Positions 28,081-38,309 of a stretch of DNA of 64,000 nt are shown in pieces. The stretch spans positions 3,264,001 to 3,328,000 of the forward strand of contig OZ245046.1 in assembly GCA_965224245.1 (NCBI GenBank), written 5' to 3'. A model generated the notes under the pieces. It did not search any database. It was not told the origin of the DNA and saw nothing but the letters and a program-made list of their open reading frames with translations. Each line of letters begins with the position of its first letter. Position 1 is the first letter of the stretch. Source of the stretch: Candidatus Eiseniibacteriota bacterium. Its GTDB lineage: Bacteria; Eisenbacteria; RBG-16-71-46; CAZAMP01. Position numbers and translations under genes: made by a program.

Positions 28081-28389
28081 ATGCGGTCCCTCGTGTCCCC
28101 CTTCGCGCGGCTCGGCGCGCGAGGCTGCGCGATCGCCGTGGCGTTCGCGCTCGGCGTCTCGGCCACACAGGTGGCCGTGGCCATCCCAGAAGACCCGTAT
28201 CCGATGGTCACGATCTCGAGCGACTTCATCCCGATGGGCGACGACTGGCAGGAGGACTACATCTCGCACGAGACGACCTCCGACCCGACGGTGTCGTCCA
28301 CCGAACGATCGGCCGACACCGATCCGATCGCGGACGAACGTTCCGTGCTCCAGCTCATGCTCACCACGTTGCGTCTCTTCATCCGATAG
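28081..28389 (+). CDS. Small secreted acidic protein/propeptide 1 (102 aa)
   Basis: Strong SD (AAAGGAGG); Sec signal ending AVA; acidic Ser/Thr/Pro body with EDPY and GDDWQE; hydrophobic C-terminus ending LFIR. Confidence 0.8.
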   Translation: MRSLVSPFARLGARGCAIAVAFALGVSATQVAVAIPEDPYPMVTISSDFIPMGDDWQEDYISHETTSDPTVSSTERSADTDPIADERSVLQLMLTTLRLFIR

Positions 28390-28407: not shown

Positions 28408-30669
28408 ATGTACGATTCATTCGAACATACGCACGTCGATGGCGGCGCCCCGGAGGAGGTCCGACTCGCACTGGCGTACCTGAACGTCGTCGGAAGCGAC
28501 GACACGCCGGCCTCCGATGATGCGACCGAGCACGACGACACGCCGGAGATCGACGAGGACGAGCTGATCCGACGCGCCCGCATCGCGATTCGCTGGCTCC
28601 ATCACCAGGGTCGGGTCGACGAGGCCCGACAGCGGCTCACGGGGCTGATCGCCCGGTGCTGTCCCGACGCGACCCGGTCCTGCCGGCTGGCCGCCACGCT
28701 GCACCGGTTGCTGGGCGTGACATACCGTCTGGATGGACGACCGATGCTGGCCGCCGACGAGCTGATGAAGGCGAAGGTCCTGTACGAGTTCGCGCACGAC
28801 CGCCACGGTGTCGCGATGTCGTTGAACGCGCTGGGAAGCCTCTACGGAAGCCTCTACCAGTGGACGATCGCCGAGGAGTGCTTCACCGCCGCACGCCAGC
28901 TCGGTCGCGAGATCGGCATGGTGTCGATTCAGCGGAAGGCCAGCCGGAACCTCGAGTTCGCCTACCTGCGCCAGGGGCGTCTCGTCGAGGTGAGTGCGCT
29001 CTGGCACGAGAGCCGCGCGCTGCCCCCGATGGACGCCGTCGACGATCCCTACCCGCTGTCTGGAGCGATCACGCTGGCGCGTTTGATGCGGACGCGCGGA
29101 TTCCCCGCCTTCGGGCGCCGGGTGGCCGAGCGCGCGCTCGAGGGGGCCGAGCAGGGCGGGTTTCGACGGACCGAGGCGTACGTGCTTCACGTGGTGGGGC
29201 AGTGCGTACTCGACATGGGGGACGTCGACCGCGCGATCGCGCTGTTCAAGCGCGAGCTCCAGCTCGGGCTCGACATGGCGCCCGTGTCCGACGTCGTCTC
29301 GGAGGCCTACCTGGGCCTGGCCCGCTCGTACGCGGCCCGTGGCGACACGACGCGGACCCGGCGCGCGATCGAGGAAGGGCTCCGCATCTCGGACGAGATC
29401 CAGGACGATCAGACCCGGGTGGGATTGCTCTCCGTCCGCGGCATGCTGGCGTTCAACGACGGTGACGTCGCCGCGGCCGATCGCGACCTCCGCGAGGCCC
29501 GCTCGATCGCCGCGCGGTGTGACTTCCAGCTCGACCTGGCGCTCTGTCTCGAGACCGAGGCGTTCCTGCGGCGCGAGGCCGGCGAGGCACCGCTGGCCGA
29601 CTCCCTGATGGCGGACGCCGCGTACGCCTATCGCCGCATCGGCGCTCCCCGGCTGGCTCGCCAGCTCGAACGAGGCCGACGCGCCCTCTCACGGGGCATC
29701 CCTCATCGCCGCCGCGTCGTCGCGGCCGATGCGCGAGCCGAGCGCTGGGAGGCGTTCGGACTGGTCACCCGGGACAAGACGTTCCTGGACGAGCTGGAGC
29801 GCACCGCCCTCATCGCCGAGACTCCGTTGCCGATCCTGATCTGCGGCGAGAGCGGCGTGGGCAAGGAGCTCGTGGCCGGGGCGATACACGAGCTGAGCGG
29901 CCGCCAGGGCGTCCTCGTCGACATCAACTGCCCGGCCATCCCCGAGACGATGCTCGAGAGCGAGCTGTTCGGTTGCCGGCGCGGGGCGTTCACCGGCGCC
30001 GAGGACCGGCCCGGGCTCGTGTCGTCCGCCGACGGCGGCACGCTGTTCCTGGACGAGATCGGCGACATGCCGCTGGGGCTCCAGTCGAAGCTCCTCAGGT
30101 TCCTCGAGACGTCGCGCTACCGCCGCGTCGGCGGCCGCACGCCGCATTCGGTGAACACCCGGCTGGTGAGTGCGACCAACTCGAACCTCGAGGACCGCGT
30201 CCGTAGCGGCGCCTTCCGGGACGATCTCTTTCACCGGATCGCCGGAGTGGTGGTCACGATCCCCGCACTCAGGGATCGACCGACGGACATCGATGTGTTG
30301 ACCGATCACTTCGTGCAGACCTCGGGCGGGAATCCCGCGGCGCTCTCGGCGTCCGTCCGGAGCGCGCTGCGCGGATACGCGTGGCCGGGCAACGTGCGCG
30401 AGCTGAAGCACGTGATCCAGCAGATGGTGTGGAGTGCGTCCGGTCCGGTGGAAATCGGTCTCGACCTCGTGCCCGAGCGCATCCGAACGCGGGTGTGCTC
30501 GCCCCCCTCCGATCCCCTCGATCATGAGACGCTCACGTCGACCTTGGTCGACACGCGCGGCAGTGTTGCCGAGTCCGCGCGTCGTCTCGGCCTGAGCCGC
30601 CAGCAGATCTACCGCCGGATCGAGGAGATGGGCCTCGATCTATCGGAGCTGCGGGGGGCCGGGTCCTAG
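28408..30669 (+). CDS. TPR + sigma54-interaction AAA+ + Fis-HTH transcriptional activator
   Basis: About 430 aa of helical repeats; [36 protein letters not shown] and [26 protein letters not shown]. Confidence 0.93.
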
Positions 30670-30890
30670 GGGCTCGGGTCATGCCCGCGGTCGCGGACGT
30701 CGCCCCCGGGCGGCGTCCGCGCCGCGGCATGGTCTCCCCGGATGCACCACGTCTTGACAGCGTTCCGGGCGCCTTCGAGAATCCTCCGCCGCGCCGGCAG
30801 CGGCCGCAGCACCGGCGGCGGCGCCACCCCGGCGTGCGGCTCCCGACGCCGACGCCACCGGAGAGCGCGCGACGCGCGCGAGGAGGAACC

Positions 30891-31433
30891 ATGCGGGACG
30901 CGGTCAACCGCCTCTGGCCCGAGCTGGAATGGATCACCGACGAGAAGCTCCGTGAGCAGGTCGCGCTGACCTGGCAGCGCGCCCTGGAGCGGAGTCCCCT
31001 CACACCCGAGGACCTGGAGCGCATCCCGTTCACACTCCTGGTGCCCGACTGCCCCGCGACCTTCATGGAGCACAAGCGCTGCGTCGTTCACGTGGCCCGC
31101 GACGCGGCGCGGGCCATGGAGACGTTCCTGGGGCGCGCGCTCCCCATCGACCACGACGTCGTGATCGCGGGCGCGATCCTCGCCGACGTCGGAAAGCTGC
31201 TCGAGTACGAGATGGTCGACGGAGAGGCCCGGCAGAGCACGAGAGGTCGCTACGTGCGGCACCCCTTCACCGGGGTCGCGCTGGCCATGGAGTGCGGCGT
31301 GCCGGACGCCGTCTGCCACATCATCGCCGCGCACGCGGCCGAAGGTGATCTCGTCGCGCGCACGACGGAGGCGTACGTCGTCCACCACGCGGACTTCATG
31401 ACGTTCCTGCCGTTCAAGAACCTGAAGCGGTAG
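30891..31433 (+). CDS. HD-domain (HDIG-type) metal-dependent phosphohydrolase
   Basis: FMEH...AGAILADVGKLLEY...RHPFTG...HHAD (the canonical HD reads AD); GAGGAGG SD. Confidence 0.85.
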   Translation: MRDAVNRLWPELEWITDEKLREQVALTWQRALERSPLTPEDLERIPFTLLVPDCPATFMEHKRCVVHVARDAARAMETFLGRALPIDHDVVIAGAILADVGKLLEYEMVDGEARQSTRGRYVRHPFTGVALAMECGVPDAVCHIIAAHAAEGDLVARTTEAYVVHHADFMTFLPFKNLKR

Positions 31434-32843: not shown

Positions 32844-34547
32844 TCAGGCGGGCACCCCGCGCGGGAGGTGAACGTCGAAGATCGCGCCGCCGTCCGGGCC
32901 GGAGCGCGCATCGATCCGGCCCCCGTGAGCCCGGACCAGCCCGTCCACCAGCGTCAGCCCCAGACCCAGGCCCTCGACGTTGGCCCGATCGTCGCCGCGC
33001 ACGAACGGCGCAAAGAGGCGCCGCCCCATCCGCACGGGAACGCCGGGCCCGTGGTCGACCACCGAGAGCCGGACGCCGCCCTGGCCGGCCGCCTCGGGCT
33101 CGACCACGACGTGGATCCGCCGGTCGCGAGAGCCCCGGGCGTACTTCTCCGCGTTGTCGAGGAGGTTCTGGAGGATGTGGAGGACCGCGTCGGCGTCGAA
33201 CGCGACCTCGGGGAGGTCCTCGGCGATCCGGACGTCCAGCGTGGCCCCGCGCGCCTCCAGCGCGGGCCGGACCCGCTCGACGTGCTCGGCCACCGCGGCG
33301 CCGAAGTCGCCGTCGGCCGCGGAGATGTCGAGCCCACCCCGCTCCAGGCGCGTGTACCCGAGCACGTTGGACACGACACGCCCGAGGCGCTCGGCCTCGG
33401 ATCGGATCTTCCCGGCATACTCCTCGGCTCGCCCCGGCTTGCCCAACCCGTCGGCCAGCATGTCCGCGTAGAGACGCATGCCCGCCAGCGGCGTCCGGAG
33501 CTCGTGGGCCGCCGAGGCGGCGAACTGCGCGCGCTCACGTCCGAGACGATCGGTCTGGAGCACGAGCCCCACCAGAATCGCGCCGGCCAGGAGCGCCGCC
33601 GCCGCGACGGCGGCGAAGGTCCGCCGGAAGCGCGTGACGAGCGCCCGGGCTTCCAGATCGGACGCCTGGAAGGCCTGGGCGGCATCGAGGGCCACGTGCC
33701 ACGACGCCCCGGCCAGCTCGAGCGGGGCACCGACCACCGTGTTCCCGGTGGGACGGGTCGCCACCAGATCGGCCGGGTAGTACACGTCCGAGAGGGACGC
33801 CCGCAGCTCCGCGACGTCGACGAGGAACCCCTGCACGACGTTCGACCCTCCCAGCTGCACGAACCGGACCGCGACCAGGGCATCGGCACCGTTCAGCGTC
33901 ACCGTCTGCCACTGGATGGGACACAGCGACACGAAGTCCTCCGTCGCCAGCGACATCGCGAGGTCGGGGGGGAGTCCGTCGGCCGGGTCGTCGAGTGAAC
34001 CGTCCTCGGGCGCCACGATCGGCTCGGACCACGACGCAACCCGCGTGCCGGACGTGCTCTCGCACAGCTCGACCAGGGAGGGACGGACGTTTGCGAGCGC
34101 GGCCGAGAGCCGCTCCTCGGCGGCCAGCCAGTCGATGGGCCCCACGTGATGCTGGAGGCTCCGTCCGTAGGAGAGCCGCGGCATCGAGACCCGGCCCGCG
34201 CCGTCGAACTGGAAGTAGGCGCGGATGAACGGGTCGGTCGGCCTCTGCGACAGCGGTGACGTGGTCGACGAGTGGCACGCGCAGTCGCTGGCCGGGTCGT
34301 GAAACGTCAGCGCGTAGTGGTACACCGGACGCGTCGCCTCGGCCTGGCGGATGGTCTCCAGCCGGCCTCCGATCCGCTCGGCCTCTCCCTCCGCCACCCG
34401 CTGCGCCTGGACCAGGCTCAGGCTCCGGATGCGATCGGTCTCGCGGGAGACGGCCGCGTTGCCGACCACGTACCAGGCCCCGAGCGGGGCGGCGATCGCC
34501 GTGAACGTGAGCGCCGATGCGAGCATGATCCGTTTCGAGAATGCCAT
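32844..34547 (-). CDS. Sensor histidine kinase
   Basis: Two TM segments; AHELRTPL (H-box), NLLDNAEKY, DHGPG and GLGLGL. Confidence 0.95.
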   Translation of the reverse strand: MAFSKRIMLASALTFTAIAAPLGAWYVVGNAAVSRETDRIRSLSLVQAQRVAEGEAERIGGRLETIRQAEATRPVYHYALTFHDPASDCACHSSTTSPLSQRPTDPFIRAYFQFDGAGRVSMPRLSYGRSLQHHVGPIDWLAAEERLSAALANVRPSLVELCESTSGTRVASWSEPIVAPEDGSLDDPADGLPPDLAMSLATEDFVSLCPIQWQTVTLNGADALVAVRFVQLGGSNVVQGFLVDVAELRASLSDVYYPADLVATRPTGNTVVGAPLELAGASWHVALDAAQAFQASDLEARALVTRFRRTFAAVAAAALLAGAILVGLVLQTDRLGRERAQFAASAAHELRTPLAGMRLYADMLADGLGKPGRAEEYAGKIRSEAERLGRVVSNVLGYTRLERGGLDISAADGDFGAAVAEHVERVRPALEARGATLDVRIAEDLPEVAFDADAVLHILQNLLDNAEKYARGSRDRRIHVVVEPEAAGQGGVRLSVVDHGPGVPVRMGRRLFAPFVRGDDRANVEGLGLGLTLVDGLVRAHGGRIDARSGPDGGAIFDVHLPRGVPA

Positions 34548-34550
34548 CGG

Positions 34551-35228
34551 CTAGGGCTCTCCCCAGGCGTACCCGACGCCCTTGACCGTCACGATCAGGC
34601 TCGGCGCCTTCGGATCCGGCTCCACCTTCTGCCGCAGGTTCGCGATCGTCATGTCGACCGTGCGCGTGTTGAGATTGCCGGGCGCGTTCCAGACCTTCTC
34701 GAGCAGCTCCGAGCGTGGGACCGCCCGCTTCCGGTTCGTGTGGAGCAGTCGGATGATCGACACCTCGCGGGGCGTGAGTTCGGTGACGCTCCCCGACCGG
34801 GACACCTCGCAGCGCCCCAGATCGATCGACCCGTCCGGGATCATCACGACCTCGGACTCGGCCGGGGCCCGGTTGCGCCGCGAGAACGCCTCCACGCGGG
34901 CCAATAGCTCCCTCGCGCCGAATGGCTTGGTCACGTAGTCGTCCGCGCCCACCCCGAGCCCGACCACCTTGTCGTCCTCGTCCCCACGTGCGGTCAGGAT
35001 CAGGATGAACAGGTCCGGCCGCTCGTCTCGCAGGCGCCGGCACACCTCGAGACCGTCCGTGCCCGGAAGCATCAAGTCCAGGAGCACCAGGTCGACGGAT
35101 CGATTCCGGCCTGCGAGGAGGGCCGCGTCTCCGTCCAGCGCGGACGTCACGGTGTGGCCGTCGCCCTCGAGGAGATCGACGAGCGCCGCGTTCAGCGCCG
35201 GCTCGTCCTCGACCACCAGAACGTGCAT
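34551..35228 (-). CDS. OmpR/PhoB family response regulator
   Basis: VVEDE, LLDLMLP, GADDYVTKPF, RTVD and TVKGVGY. Confidence 0.96.
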   Translation of the reverse strand: MHVLVVEDEPALNAALVDLLEGDGHTVTSALDGDAALLAGRNRSVDLVLLDLMLPGTDGLEVCRRLRDERPDLFILILTARGDEDDKVVGLGVGADDYVTKPFGARELLARVEAFSRRNRAPAESEVVMIPDGSIDLGRCEVSRSGSVTELTPREVSIIRLLHTNRKRAVPRSELLEKVWNAPGNLNTRTVDMTIANLRQKVEPDPKAPSLIVTVKGVGYAWGEP

Positions 35229-35619
35229 GACGGGACTCCTGCGGGATCGGGCCGGCCGGCTGCGCCTGCACGCGGCGTGACCGACCTCGGCGAACACATC
35301 TCTGCCGACACTATGTCACGAGCGTGGAGGCGGCGCGGTCAATTGCGCGTAAAAGCCCTCGCCGCTTGCCGCCACCCTCCGGCGGCGGCTATGTTCTCGG
35401 CGCCCGACACAGGACGGCCCTACACGGATGAACGGCCACGCCATGGGACGACGTTCGCGCGCCCGCCAACTCCTGCTCCGGCACGCCACGGCGAGCGACG
35501 GCACATCCGCCCCCCGTCCGCCCCCTCATTCGCTCTGCATCCCACGCCGCGCATCCGGGCCTTGCCGGCCCCCATCCAGACGACGCGATATCGACCCAAA
35601 CGATGATCGGAGATCCCCG

Positions 35620-35907
35620 ATGACGATCCTCACCCGCCTCGCCCGCACGGCCGTAACCCTCGCCCTGTCGGCCACGGTCTTCTCGATGACGCTGGCGCCA
35701 TCCGCGCAGGCGGACGTCACCTCCGACGGAGACCCGTGGGAGAACGAGCGACTCGGCGAGCCGGCCGACCCCCCGACCGACACCACGCTGACCGCGAGCG
35801 CGGGGACGACGAGCGACCTCGACGACGCCGGAGATCCCTGGGAGAACGAGCGACTCGCCGGAACGCTCATGGAGAGCACGGCCTGGTTGACTCTCGCGAT
35901 ACGCTGA
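35620..35907 (+). CDS. Small secreted acidic propeptide 2 (95 aa) with two GDPWENERL repeats
   Basis: GGAG SD; signal ending AQA; repeats at 35728-35754 and 35830-35856; hydrophobic C-terminus ending LAIR. Confidence 0.82.
   Translation: MTILTRLARTAVTLALSATVFSMTLAPSAQADVTSDGDPWENERLGEPADPPTDTTLTASAGTTSDLDDAGDPWENERLAGTLMESTAWLTLAIR
35728..35856 (+). repeat. Direct repeat of 27 bp encoding GDPWENERL (35728-35754, 35830-35856)
   Basis: The copies differ only at GAC CCG vs GAT CCC (synonymous). Confidence 0.95.
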
Positions 35908-35981
35908 TCCGAGGCCGGGGTCGCCGCGCCGTGCGGCGACTCCATCATCCCGTCCGCGCCGAGAAGCCGTGCCGGTCGATG

Positions 35982-38039
35982 TCACACACCGGGCCGCTCG
36001 GCTCGTGCCACACGGCTCGGTCCACGAAACGGCCACGGCAGCATCTCGGGAGAGATGCACCCCCCGCTCGACGCCACGTGGGCGAGCGCGCTGCACACGT
36101 CGCGAAGCTCACGAACGTTCCCGCGGCTCCACCCGTGCGCGACCAGACGATCCACCGTCGCCGGATCCAGGCGTGGAGCATCGGCCGCTTCGGGGAGCCG
36201 CTGCGAGAGGAACAGCAACGCCAGCGGCTCGATCTCCTCGGGTCGGTCACGCAACGCCGGCACCGTCACCACACGGCCGGAAAGCAGCTCGAAGAGCTCC
36301 GCATCGAAGGCTCCGCGCTCGATCAGCGGTCTCGGATCCTCGGTGGCGGTGCTGATCAGCCGGAGCGCGTTCTCGGGGTCGTCGTCGCCGCGCGATCGCA
36401 GGAACCGCACGAGCTCGCGCTGCATGCCCCGTGGCATGGACGTGACGTCCTCCAGGATCGCACTTCCGCCGTCGGCCATCGCGAAGTACCCCGACAACGT
36501 CCAGTCGTCGCCGACGTTTCCGGCGGCCGACAGATCCGGGAGCGTCTCGCAGGCGAGGTTCACGCACAGCCGGCCCCGGCGCCCGAGCTTGTGTACCGCC
36601 GCGGCGATCAGGCGCTTGCCCACGCCGGGCTCGCCGACGAGCATCGTGGGAATCTGATCACCGGCCGCCTCGACGAGCTGATCCAGCGTGGCCAGCATCC
36701 GTGGGCTGGATGCCCGAACGCCCATGCGTTCCCAGACCGCTCGCCGCGAGCGCGGCCGCGACAGCGCACGTTCACCCCGCTCCAGCCGGCGCAGGAGGCG
36801 CCCCAGCCCCAGTCGCCGATATCGCCGCGTCGCCCGTTCGAGGTTTCGCTCGCCGATGCGGGAGTGCCCGACGCTGGACCACAGGCGCGCCTGGTACTCG
36901 CGGGTGAGCGCCGCCTCGAACCGATAGCCCCGCCGATCCGCGATCGCGACCGCCTCGGCAAAGAGCTGCGCGGCGAGATCGCGCCGGCCGCGCTCGAACG
37001 CGATCACGCCCGACACGCGCAGCAGGGCGACGCGCTCGAAGTCGTCGTTCAGGGCGTGGGTGAGCCTGAGCCCCTCATGCGCATCGCGCTCGGCGTGCTC
37101 GAGCTCTCCCCGCGCGGCATGCGCCTCGGCGAGCCGCCGGTAGCACTCGAGAACGACATCCCCTTCCGGCGCGATCTCGAGCCCGATCCGAAGCGCCTCC
37201 TTGAAGTGAACGAGCGCCGGCTCCGGGTGTCCCAGATCGAGGAGGGCATCTCCGATGAACTCGTTCGCCAGCGCCTCGCCCCGCCGGAACTCGGTGGACC
37301 GGGAGCGGCGCAGCGCCTCGGCCGCGACCTTGCGGGCGTGGTGCGCCAGTCCGAGGTTGCGGTAGATCTGAGCCCGGACCAGCCACACGTTGGTCACGAA
37401 GTTGGCTCGCTGTGTGCCGTCGAGCTCGCGGGCCACCCGGTGGATGCGACGCAGCGCGTCCACGAACAGCCCCTGCTTGTGCTGGCAGATCGACAGATTC
37501 AGCCAGGCGGCCTGCGCGAGATCGGACTCGCCGGCCTCGCGTGCCCAGAGCTGTCCGACGTGGAACGCCCGTCGCGCCGTGCTCCAGTTCGACAGCATCG
37601 CGTTGGCGGTACCGATGTCGTTCTGCGTCTTGGAGAGCCCACGCGGATCGCGGGCGTCACCGAACAGCCGCAGCGCCTCCTTCAGCTCGTCGATCGCCTC
37701 GTGGGTGTGACCGATGCGGAGCAGGAACACGCCGATCCATCGCTGGAGATGGGCCAGATGCAGGACCTCGTCACACAGCGGCTCGGTCTGGCGCGCGATG
37801 CGCAGGAAGCGGAGTCCGCTCTCGAAGTTGCCCTCGCGATAGAACGCCGACGCGATCTCGTCCAGGACGGCGGGCGTCGGAACCGAGCCGCACACCAGCG
37901 CGGCATGCGCGTGGCTGAGCGCCGCGAAGCGTGGCGTGTCGGCCATGGCGTTCACGACCTGCCGGGTCGCCTCCAGCTCGCGGCTGACCGACTCGAGAAG
38001 CGCGGACAGTGGACGCGGTGGCTCTGCGTGCCACGTCAC
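35982..38039 (-). CDS. TPR + degenerate sigma54-type AAA+ protein (paralog of 28408-30669; no GAFTGA, no HTH)
   Basis: TPR region aligns with the paralog (FRRGEA...APEGDVVLECY vs FRRTEA...[11 protein letters not shown]); GEPGVGKR; ADGGSAILED; GNVREL. Start uncertain, ORF open to 38258. Confidence 0.85.
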   Translation of the reverse strand: MTWHAEPPRPLSALLESVSRELEATRQVVNAMADTPRFAALSHAHAALVCGSVPTPAVLDEIASAFYREGNFESGLRFLRIARQTEPLCDEVLHLAHLQRWIGVFLLRIGHTHEAIDELKEALRLFGDARDPRGLSKTQNDIGTANAMLSNWSTARRAFHVGQLWAREAGESDLAQAAWLNLSICQHKQGLFVDALRRIHRVARELDGTQRANFVTNVWLVRAQIYRNLGLAHHARKVAAEALRRSRSTEFRRGEALANEFIGDALLDLGHPEPALVHFKEALRIGLEIAPEGDVVLECYRRLAEAHAARGELEHAERDAHEGLRLTHALNDDFERVALLRVSGVIAFERGRRDLAAQLFAEAVAIADRRGYRFEAALTREYQARLWSSVGHSRIGERNLERATRRYRRLGLGRLLRRLERGERALSRPRSRRAVWERMGVRASSPRMLATLDQLVEAAGDQIPTMLVGEPGVGKRLIAAAVHKLGRRGRLCVNLACETLPDLSAAGNVGDDWTLSGYFAMADGGSAILEDVTSMPRGMQRELVRFLRSRGDDDPENALRLISTATEDPRPLIERGAFDAELFELLSGRVVTVPALRDRPEEIEPLALLFLSQRLPEAADAPRLDPATVDRLVAHGWSRGNVRELRDVCSALAHVASSGGCISPEMLPWPFRGPSRVARAERPGV

Positions 38040-38309
38040 GGCCGGACCGCCGGTGAGGTCGTCGTCGACAATCGGAGCAGCATCCTGACTCCCGTCGTCT
38101 CGCCGTTGCCTTCGTGCACCGTGCCCGGCGCCGGGTGGGGCCCGGGAATCGTCCGGGGCGTCATAAGTCGTAGCATGGCAGGGGCTTCGCGCGCAAGCAG
38201 CACCCCTTGCCCCGGGGCCGTGGGTTGAGCCGGCCCCCCCGGGCGTGGTCCACTCCACCGCGCGGACCCGTCCCGTCCGACGATACCGCTACTTGAAGGA
38301 ACCACCACC

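Follow-up and report, generated by a model that had tools for sequence, protein, structure and literature searches.

What is the role of a small, apparently exported protein that carries one nonapeptide twice? The question is posed by ORF95, an open reading frame (ORF) in a genome of Candidatus Eiseniibacteriota bacterium (assembly GCA_965224245.1, contig OZ245046.1), within a stretch of 64,000 nucleotides that was analysed as a whole and is called the window below. A preliminary description of this DNA took the duplicated nonapeptide, GDPWENERL, as the best guess for a mature signal released from a propeptide. The evidence favors another answer. By its position and architecture ORF95 is quite probably part of a two-gene module general in its class, in which a small exported protein accompanies a regulator with a tetratricopeptide repeat (TPR) sensor and an AAA+ domain of the sigma-54-activator type. 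The best overall explanation, to which we give a probability of roughly 45%, is that ORF95 is the exported partner of the TPR regulator, EBP2, whose gene lies beside it.

The ORF95 locus has the following features, given in window coordinates:

35608..35612, plus strand: ribosome-binding site GGAGA, 7 nucleotides ahead of the ATG, seen in the sequence.
35620..35907, plus strand: ORF95 (P0001), a predicted small acidic exported protein, from codon statistics.
35620..35712, plus strand: predicted Sec-type signal peptide, residues 1-31, with two Arg, a hydrophobic core and A-Q-A before D32 (a by-eye call).
35728..35754, plus strand: GDPWENERL copy 1, residues 37-45, at the position of the family's N-proximal G-D-P motif.
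35830..35856, plus strand: GDPWENERL copy 2, residues 71-79, just before and within the start of the C-terminal helix.
35836..35901, plus strand: predicted C-terminal helix and hydrophobic Trp-containing tail, residues 73-94 (AlphaFold2; predicted local distance difference test score, pLDDT, 65-79 over the last 20 residues).
35917..35943, no strand assigned: G+C-rich hairpin of 11 bp separating ORF95 from the convergent EBP2 gene, -30.6 kcal/mol over 61 nucleotides.

The frame runs from ATG 35620 to TGA 35905-35907 and encodes 95 amino acids. Under a codon log-odds model trained on 526 long genes of the same genome it scores 0.408 bits per codon, a value that corresponds to the 10th percentile of 1422 true-gene windows and is attained by 0.03% of 7110 wrong-frame windows; the five other frames of ORF95 are all negative. 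GC content by codon position is 0.625/0.594/0.885, the third-position values of neighboring genes being 0.84-0.92, and this third-position signal begins at the ATG, the in-frame upstream extension to 35428 staying flat at 0.70 with a codon score of -0.552. Because of the codon statistics, the ribosome-binding site and the signal peptide, ORF95 is, as far as sequence can tell, very likely a real, lineage-specific gene. An antisense ORF at 35526-35948 on the minus strand shares the wobble position, but was rejected on a codon score of at most -0.02.

The middle of the protein is very acidic and rich in Thr, Asp and Pro, and its C-terminal end is hydrophobic. AlphaFold2, run with alignment A1, predicts a helix over residues 2-24, an unstructured stretch over 25-72 and a second helix over 73-94 (mean pLDDT 68.6), the last starting at the Pro of the second nonapeptide copy and containing a Trp at residue 89. 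No sigma-70-like promoter was found in 35150-36100, and Rfam gave nothing above threshold over the ORF95 region, a single CRISPR-DR28 match (E = 0.89) falling on the minus strand. The hairpin at 35917..35943, with z = -1.86 and 12 of 200 shuffles folding at least as well, weakly suggests a possible terminator, without a U tract, shared by ORF95 and EBP2. Another terminator-like hairpin, with a T-rich tail, is present at 35366-35388 on the plus strand, within the long intergenic region that separates ORF95 from a response-regulator gene.

ORF95 is an orphan, with no homologue found in any database searched. It matched 0 families in Pfam and 0 in NCBIfam, found only itself in its own genome, and gave a best E of 0.015 against 60 relatives. 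A word-indexed search of 5.8 billion clusters returned only ORF95 among 274 candidates, and exhaustive phmmer over 1.84 billion representatives returned only ORF95 and P0002, a 996-residue Thr/Ser/Val-rich low-complexity repeat protein that was judged to be a compositional match. The best score in the ESM Atlas, 0.86, under the useful range, went to actinobacterial hypothetical clusters. Neither the nonapeptide nor even DPWENE recurs when the whole genome is translated in six frames (13.9 million residues), and as a DNA pattern the nonapeptide had 0 matches in species genomes and 0 in metagenome contigs. The DNA pattern for DPWENER was found at 110 loci, one match each in unrelated proteins and close to our own estimate for chance, and no small two-motif ORF was among them. 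With a G or E ahead of it, the heptapeptide is also a conserved feature of a protein of marine group II (Poseidoniales) archaea, close to its C-terminus, and of a Cellulomonas ABC-type ATPase, both contexts unrelated to ORF95.

The genes with which ORF95 can be compared are reached through its neighbor. A tblastn search of the genome with the TPR part uncovered three close TPR-regulator paralogues, EBP1, EBP2 and EBP3, of which the first two lie in the window:

28081..28389, plus strand: P0003, a predicted 102-residue, paralogue-like small exported protein, 18 nucleotides upstream of EBP1.
28408..30669, plus strand: EBP1, a complete regulator with TPR, sigma-54 activator and HTH_8 domains (Sigma54_activat E = 4.8e-57, TPR_12, HTH_8).
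35982..38258, minus strand: EBP2, a degenerate TPR and AAA+ regulator of the sigma-54-activator type (Pfam), the proposed partner of ORF95.

EBP1, about 7 kb upstream of ORF95, shows what a complete pair looks like. P0003 (codon score 0.377) has a signal peptide and an acidic middle with G-D-D-W-Q-E-D, and its C-terminus, D-P-I-A-D-E-R followed by a hydrophobic tail to I-R, parallels the D-P-W-E-N-E-R and tail to I-R of ORF95; BLASTP aligns the two proteins over their full length with E = 0.002. EBP3 (C1:4952215-4954422) carries Sigma54_activat, AAA_lid_14 and HTH_8, and its start is overlapped by 11 nucleotides by a third small ORF of 93-103 amino acids (C1:4951944-4952225 of the genome under study, G000; L176:2445-2726), which has a signal-peptide-like N-terminus, the sequence S-D-G-E-P-W-D-D-P-E-E and the ending N-E-R, and which is located in a stretch of lower GC. 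The only other genome of the same family (f1), G001, has a regulator orthologue (E = 3e-61) that is preceded, with a 4-nucleotide overlap, by a signal-peptide ORF of 111 amino acids with L-D-D-W-G-D-P-D-D-D-Q-W and a hydrophobic Trp-containing tail. Just beyond EBP1, beginning 12 nucleotides past its end, is an unannotated ORF of 250 amino acids (30681-31433) with no Pfam match.

The mature parts of the four small proteins were compared against 2000 composition-preserving shuffles per pair. The observed score was reached by 7 shuffles for ORF95 and P0003, 16 for ORF95 and the third ORF, 22 for P0003 and the G001 protein, 62 for the third ORF and the G001 protein, 141 for ORF95 and the G001 protein and 845 for P0003 and the third ORF, so that four of the six pairs fall below 5% and the paralogue group has similarity beyond composition. 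When the four are aligned, an N-proximal Trp-acidic motif and a [DN]-[EQ]-R element before the tail line up. The pattern G[DE][PD]W[EDQ][NED], which was defined post hoc, has 7 matches among the six-frame residues of the genome, 4 of them within the three small ORFs, where 0.002 are expected per locus, and the other three in unrelated frames; a regular expression for the Trp-acidic motif, run over 30 regulator loci, matched the own-genome locus only. Net-charge complementarity between small protein and TPR domain was also considered, but was inconsistent (EBP1 -8, P0003 -10) and was dropped.

EBP2 itself departs from the complete form. Pfam recognizes TPR families and Sigma54_activat (E = 3.9e-13) but no HTH_8, and in the alignment with EBP1 (33% identity over about 600 residues) the stretch that bears GAFTGA in EBP1 is deleted and the Walker B region is altered. 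EBP2 is thus without the GAFTGA loop and the C-terminal helix-turn-helix (HTH) domain of an enhancer-binding protein, and has neither of these means of contacting sigma-54 and of binding DNA. Its frame is open all the same, with codons 100-758 scoring as coding (0.454) and the first 100 codons not (-0.269); because the latter score as non-coding, the true start is probably near 37960 rather than at the listed ORF start. The EBP2 and ORF95 genes are arranged tail to tail, the end of ORF95 lying 75 nucleotides from the 3' end of EBP2. ORF95 sits beside a TPR regulator of the sigma-54-activator type, and it has the architecture of the small proteins found beside such regulators: a signal peptide, G-D-P (here twice), a low-complexity middle and a hydrophobic tail containing Trp.

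The pairing extends through this uncultivated class, which database sources call Eisenbacteria. When the TPR part of EBP1 was used to search 200 class genomes at E <= 1e-10, the regulator was found in 38 of 201 genomes, the own genome included, and 30 loci were obtained. Each of the 18 loci whose sequence reaches at least 600 nucleotides upstream of the regulator has a small co-directional ORF there (17 of 17 without locus L160, which like L199 comes from the unpublished genome G053). These ORFs encode 85-129 amino acids with a hydrophobic N-terminal window, and they end between 98 nucleotides inside and 113 nucleotides before the first start codon of the regulator. At the remaining 12 the sequence upstream was too short, although L168, one of these, preserves a 3' fragment of such an ORF. 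As a control, the same heuristic applied to the own genome found an upstream ORF of this kind for 26 of 930 long genes, and only 2 of these had G-[DE]-P.

A profile of the upstream ORFs, ORF95 included, retrieved 66 proteins from the database of 5.8 billion clusters, all annotated as hypothetical and without Pfam match; the organisms, where named, were Candidatus Eisenbacteria or Eiseniibacteriota. These class-wide small proteins do not form a family in NCBIfam either, and one member, when placed in the ESM Atlas, falls among unnamed Eiseniibacteriota clusters. Among the 65 members of the family (about 110 amino acids), G-D-P is present in 65, GDPD.P in 58 and GDGG in 49; 64 of the 65 have a Trp within the last 25 residues, and the tail is basic, with a median charge of +4. 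The N-terminus M-R-R-F-x-x-N-R-W-W is unusually conserved for a signal peptide, and many of the C-termini are aromatic (F or W), others ending in R. A further profile, A3, built without any sequence of G000 or G001, matches 96 of the 201 class genomes, among them 69 of 85 in family f9, 9 of 9 in f17 and 9 of 41 in f8. At all 30 of the A3 loci fetched (29 of 29 without L199) a TPR regulator starts 57-132 nucleotides downstream on the same strand. The class-wide regulators carry Sigma54_activat, AAA_lid_14 and HTH_8.

The surroundings of the class-wide pairs were also inspected. At 11 of 14 extended loci (the 11 lying among L178-L188) a sigma-54-type -24/-12 match, defined as at least 10 of 12 consensus positions and expected about 0.02 times per window (31 matches in 203 kb), lies 138-300 nucleotides past the regulator stop, oriented like the regulator gene and towards the gene that follows. 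L177 and L190 are without such a site and L189 is not assessable. The product of the gene beyond the site is a lipoprotein-like c-type cytochrome at four loci and has a weak fn3 match at three; this gene looks like the target of the regulator. Upstream of 30 class-wide small ORFs the best sigma-54 scores are at most 8, bar one of 10, and in the vicinity of ORF95 and P0003 the highest score is 9 of 12 positions, at 35444, short of the 10 that were required. At five loci (L179, L180, L181, L182 and L184) the pair is directly downstream of cysteinyl-tRNA synthetase, and at three loci glutamyl-tRNA-synthetase-like genes are found further upstream; these neighbors place the module in a core-genome context rather than on an island.

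The sensor half of the regulator has a recognizable fold. A model of the EBP2 TPR domain (pLDDT 87.5, predicted template modelling score 0.82) gave these structural matches:

Rap of phage phi3T, with pheromone: Z 31.8.
APPBP2, with degron: Z 31.3.
RapF, with peptide: Z 30.3.
APC/C TPR subunits: Z about 30.
RapJ, with CSF: Z 30.0.
MalT domain III (1hz4): Z 29.7, root-mean-square deviation 3.7 over 356 residues.
NprR: Z 27.7.
AimR: Z about 23.

The model suggests a ligand- or peptide-binding superhelix of the Rap/MalT size class, and the fold result says no more than this.

Several known systems resemble the module in part. As in the RRNPP systems of Firmicutes and their phages (Rap-Phr, NprR-NprX, PlcR-PapR and AimR-AimP), a small gene with a Sec signal lies beside a cytoplasmic TPR-superhelix regulator. 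Unlike those systems, the module occurs in what is reportedly a diderm candidate phylum; its small proteins have 95-130 amino acids, whereas RRNPP propeptides have about 40-60; its output is an AAA+ sigma-54 activator rather than an HTH domain or a phosphatase; and its most conserved motif is invariant across families, in contrast to the variable, pherotype-specific RRNPP peptides. No RRNPP-specific Pfam family was matched among the regulators scanned. MalT domain III is close in fold, and class-wide regulators match Pfam TPR_MalT (E = 3.8e-12 and 4.3e-13); MalT is a sugar sensor with a different ATPase and output, and we know of no small exported partner for it. The domains Sigma54_activat, AAA_lid_14 and HTH_8 of EBP1, EBP3 and the class-wide regulators are those of bacterial enhancer-binding proteins, but these usually sense through a receiver, GAF, PAS or V4R domain, whereas the N-terminal sensor here is a TPR superhelix of about 400 residues. 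The motifs of ORF95, P0003, the third ORF and the G001 protein share their Trp-acidic character with ligands of the kinesin light chain TPR domain, which binds such motifs, often two per ligand; this is an analogy only, the kinesin light chain system being eukaryotic and cytosolic and having no evolutionary link to the module. Among the titles and abstract openings examined no paper links Eisenbacteria with sigma-54 and none deals with TPR-type activators paired with a small exported protein, and RRNPP systems and enhancer-binding proteins come together there only in an unrelated Enterococcus study.

If ORF95 is the exported partner of its regulator, the following course of events may be envisaged. 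The precursor of 95 amino acids would be exported through Sec and cleaved after A-Q-A, leaving a mature protein of 64 amino acids with a net charge of -12, largely disordered and ending in a hydrophobic Trp-containing helix. Of the three small-protein/regulator pairs in the genome, ORF95 is assigned to the one with the degenerate EBP2, and its product would work together with the TPR regulator. By analogy with Rap-Phr or NprR-NprX it can be proposed, tentatively, that the TPR domain takes its cue from the exported protein, or from a fragment holding its tail or its Trp-acidic motif, in which case sensing would require proteolysis and re-uptake. EBP2, if functional, would act as a decoy or modulator. 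The fullest version of this scheme, an RRNPP-type circuit with sigma-54 output in a diderm candidate phylum, in which the fragment that re-enters the cell and binds the TPR sensor is, in the lineage of this genome, the Trp-acidic motif and ORF95 and EBP2 form a decoy or modulator branch, appears rather unlikely.

A number of observations weigh against ORF95 as the exported partner of a TPR regulator. Run at E <= 10 against 70160 six-frame segments, a hidden Markov model of the 65-member family picks up none of the three small ORFs of the genome (ORF95, P0003 and the third), A3 has no match in G000 or G001, and hhalign gives a probability of 12% for the full length and 0.3% for the mature parts; a family match with E = 8.1e-7 came from a profile that contained ORF95 itself. 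Membership by profile match therefore fails at the sequence level, and the link between ORF95 and the family rests on position, architecture and one tripeptide. ORF95 converges with its regulator, whereas at the other 18 of 18 and 30 of 30 loci the small ORF is upstream and co-directional, and since neither GAFTGA nor a DNA-binding domain is present in EBP2 the pair may be in decay. Least certain of the three small ORFs is the third, which has a codon score of -0.141 and no hydrophobic tail and may be truncated or degenerating. The genome also has a fourth, weaker TPR/activator-like match, a protein of 1022 amino acids (G000:C1:2409077-2412145, minus strand; tblastn E = 2.4e-14), upstream of which only an ORF of 237 amino acids is listed, no careful check for a small exported ORF having been made. 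TPR superhelices score high broadly, with APC/C subunits and APPBP2 tied with Rap. Finally, the regulator has no membrane segment and the small protein carries an export signal, so that direct sensing would need an unobserved re-uptake, and the ORF95 locus has neither a protease nor an uptake system linked to it.

That GDPWENERL is duplicated within 35620-35907, with synonymous DNA differences only, was confirmed from the sequence: just 2 of the 27 nucleotides distinguish one copy from the other (GAC/GAT and CCG/CCC), both changes being silent, and copy 1 does begin 5 residues after AQA|D, as the preliminary description had said. Its statement that the flanks are unrelated is only loosely true. 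The residues that follow the nonapeptide differ (G-E and A-G), but a repeat search, which places the copies 102 nucleotides apart, extends the match to 46 nucleotides at 80% identity, and 12 of the 19 flanking positions outside the 27-nucleotide core are identical. The region 35300-36100 is reproduced with 0 differences and no variants in contigs from 4 DNA runs of one sample; as this may be the source sample, all that follows from the contigs is that the repeat was not confined to a single assembly. With 5.67 synonymous and 21.33 non-synonymous sites, the probability that both changes are silent under neutrality and equal rates is 0.044, which is weak evidence for selection on the nonapeptide, in keeping with the statistical caution already attached to that idea.

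In the relatives two positions can be recognized, an N-proximal G-[DE]-[PD]-W-acidic motif and [DN]-[EQ]-R before the tail, and in ORF95 the same nonapeptide, which holds both elements, occupies both. Because it does so, the repeat is read as the homogenizing of two positions that were already similar, and it seems reasonably likely that 27 nucleotides or more were duplicated or converted within the gene and then acquired two silent changes. The motif is the part of the protein with counterparts elsewhere, G-[DE]-[PD]-W-acidic recurring in the two sister ORFs and G-D-P, the most conserved element of the family, class-wide; WENERL is not conserved outside ORF95.

The alternative that survives best, doubtful as it is, makes ORF95 a decaying or drifting remnant of a duplicated small-ORF/regulator pair, and the repeat a recent slippage or duplication without function. 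EBP2 is without GAFTGA and an HTH domain, the gene order has been rearranged to convergent, no homologue of ORF95 was found, its codon score reaches only the 10th percentile of true genes, and two substitutions cannot tell a recent event from selection. Against decay, both ORFs are intact; the 2.3-kb regulator frame is open and scores as coding over codons 100-758, and ORF95 retains its ribosome-binding site, signal peptide, both motif positions, tail and a third-position GC of 0.885.

The reading closest to the preliminary description, in which ORF95 is the precursor of two identical cores released as a nonapeptide pheromone or as a signal like the ribosomally synthesized and post-translationally modified peptides (RiPPs), is improbable. 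It draws on the identity of the copies, which differ only silently (P = 0.044), on the closeness of copy 1 to the predicted signal-peptidase site, and on the adjacent TPR protein with a Rap/NprR-like fold. The Pfam families of the genes scanned around ORF95 (22309-46283) are, however, those of a two-component system, MarR, YceI, a metallophosphoesterase, ABC exporters and an M16 peptidase, and no modifying enzyme, cyclase or leader protease is among them; the ABC exporters have no peptidase domain match, and the M16 peptidase is 7.6 kb away. Moreover, a Sec signal peptide is atypical for a RiPP leader, the relatives have single and differing motifs, WENERL being unique to ORF95 and multi-copy relatives lacking, copy 2 is predicted to lie within a helix that runs into the tail rather than in a free cassette, and the repeat search brings out no clearly conserved cleavage sites around both copies. 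The proposal of a RiPP or multi-copy pheromone core was not borne out.

Equally improbable is a role for ORF95 as accessory protein, ligand or target of the two-component system on its other side:

32844..35297, minus strand: two-component system of a histidine kinase with an OmpR-type response regulator (Pfam), transcribed divergently from ORF95.

The arrangement resembles that of CpxP, Spy and ZraP, periplasmic modulators of small size whose genes adjoin two-component systems, divergently in the case of cpxRA or zraSR. Here too the gene of a small exported protein, in which a short motif is present twice, is divergent from a kinase/regulator operon, across an intergenic region of about 320-390 nucleotides, and the large periplasmic domain of the kinase between two hydrophobic segments would suit an exported partner. 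This periplasmic segment, about 290 amino acids of the kinase gene at 32844-34547 (minus strand), has no Pfam match and is conserved in G026, G012 and G005. Unlike the CpxP group, ORF95 has no Pfam match and hence no LTXXQ-type domain, and it is predicted to be disordered rather than a helical hairpin. The kinase orthologues in G012, G005 and G026 (46-50% identity) have no ORF95-like gene alongside, their neighbors being a methyltransferase-like gene in one case, a secreted protein of 407 amino acids in another and none evident in the third, and the other two small ORFs and the G001 ORF are without a kinase alongside. Because the orthologous kinases have different neighbors, the adjacency is probably incidental.

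Least probable of all is that the small ORFs act mainly in cis, as leader or export-monitor peptides of the SecM, MifM and VemP kind that control translation of the following regulator gene, for although the small ORF ends 13-113 nucleotides ahead of the regulator start or overlaps it, and a signal peptide with a conserved C-terminal segment by the stop codon fits a monitor layout, the most conserved element, G-D-P-D, is in mid-protein outside that segment, and ORF95, being upstream of no gene and facing a hairpin and a convergent gene, cannot act so.

Small exported proteins are often overlooked or left as hypothetical. Here an orphan ORF leads to a strictly conserved pair, an exported mini-protein and a TPR-sensor sigma-54 activator, that was found in about half of the sampled class genomes (96 of 201) and that neither Pfam nor NCBIfam names. 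Pairs of a TPR-sensor regulator and a small secreted protein are, as a kind, already known. If the small protein is indeed the cue for the TPR domain, peptide-receptor logic of the RRNPP kind, so far described to our knowledge only in Firmicutes and their phages, would here be wired to a different transcription machinery; if it is not the cue, the pair would still mark an unknown envelope-linked regulatory unit.

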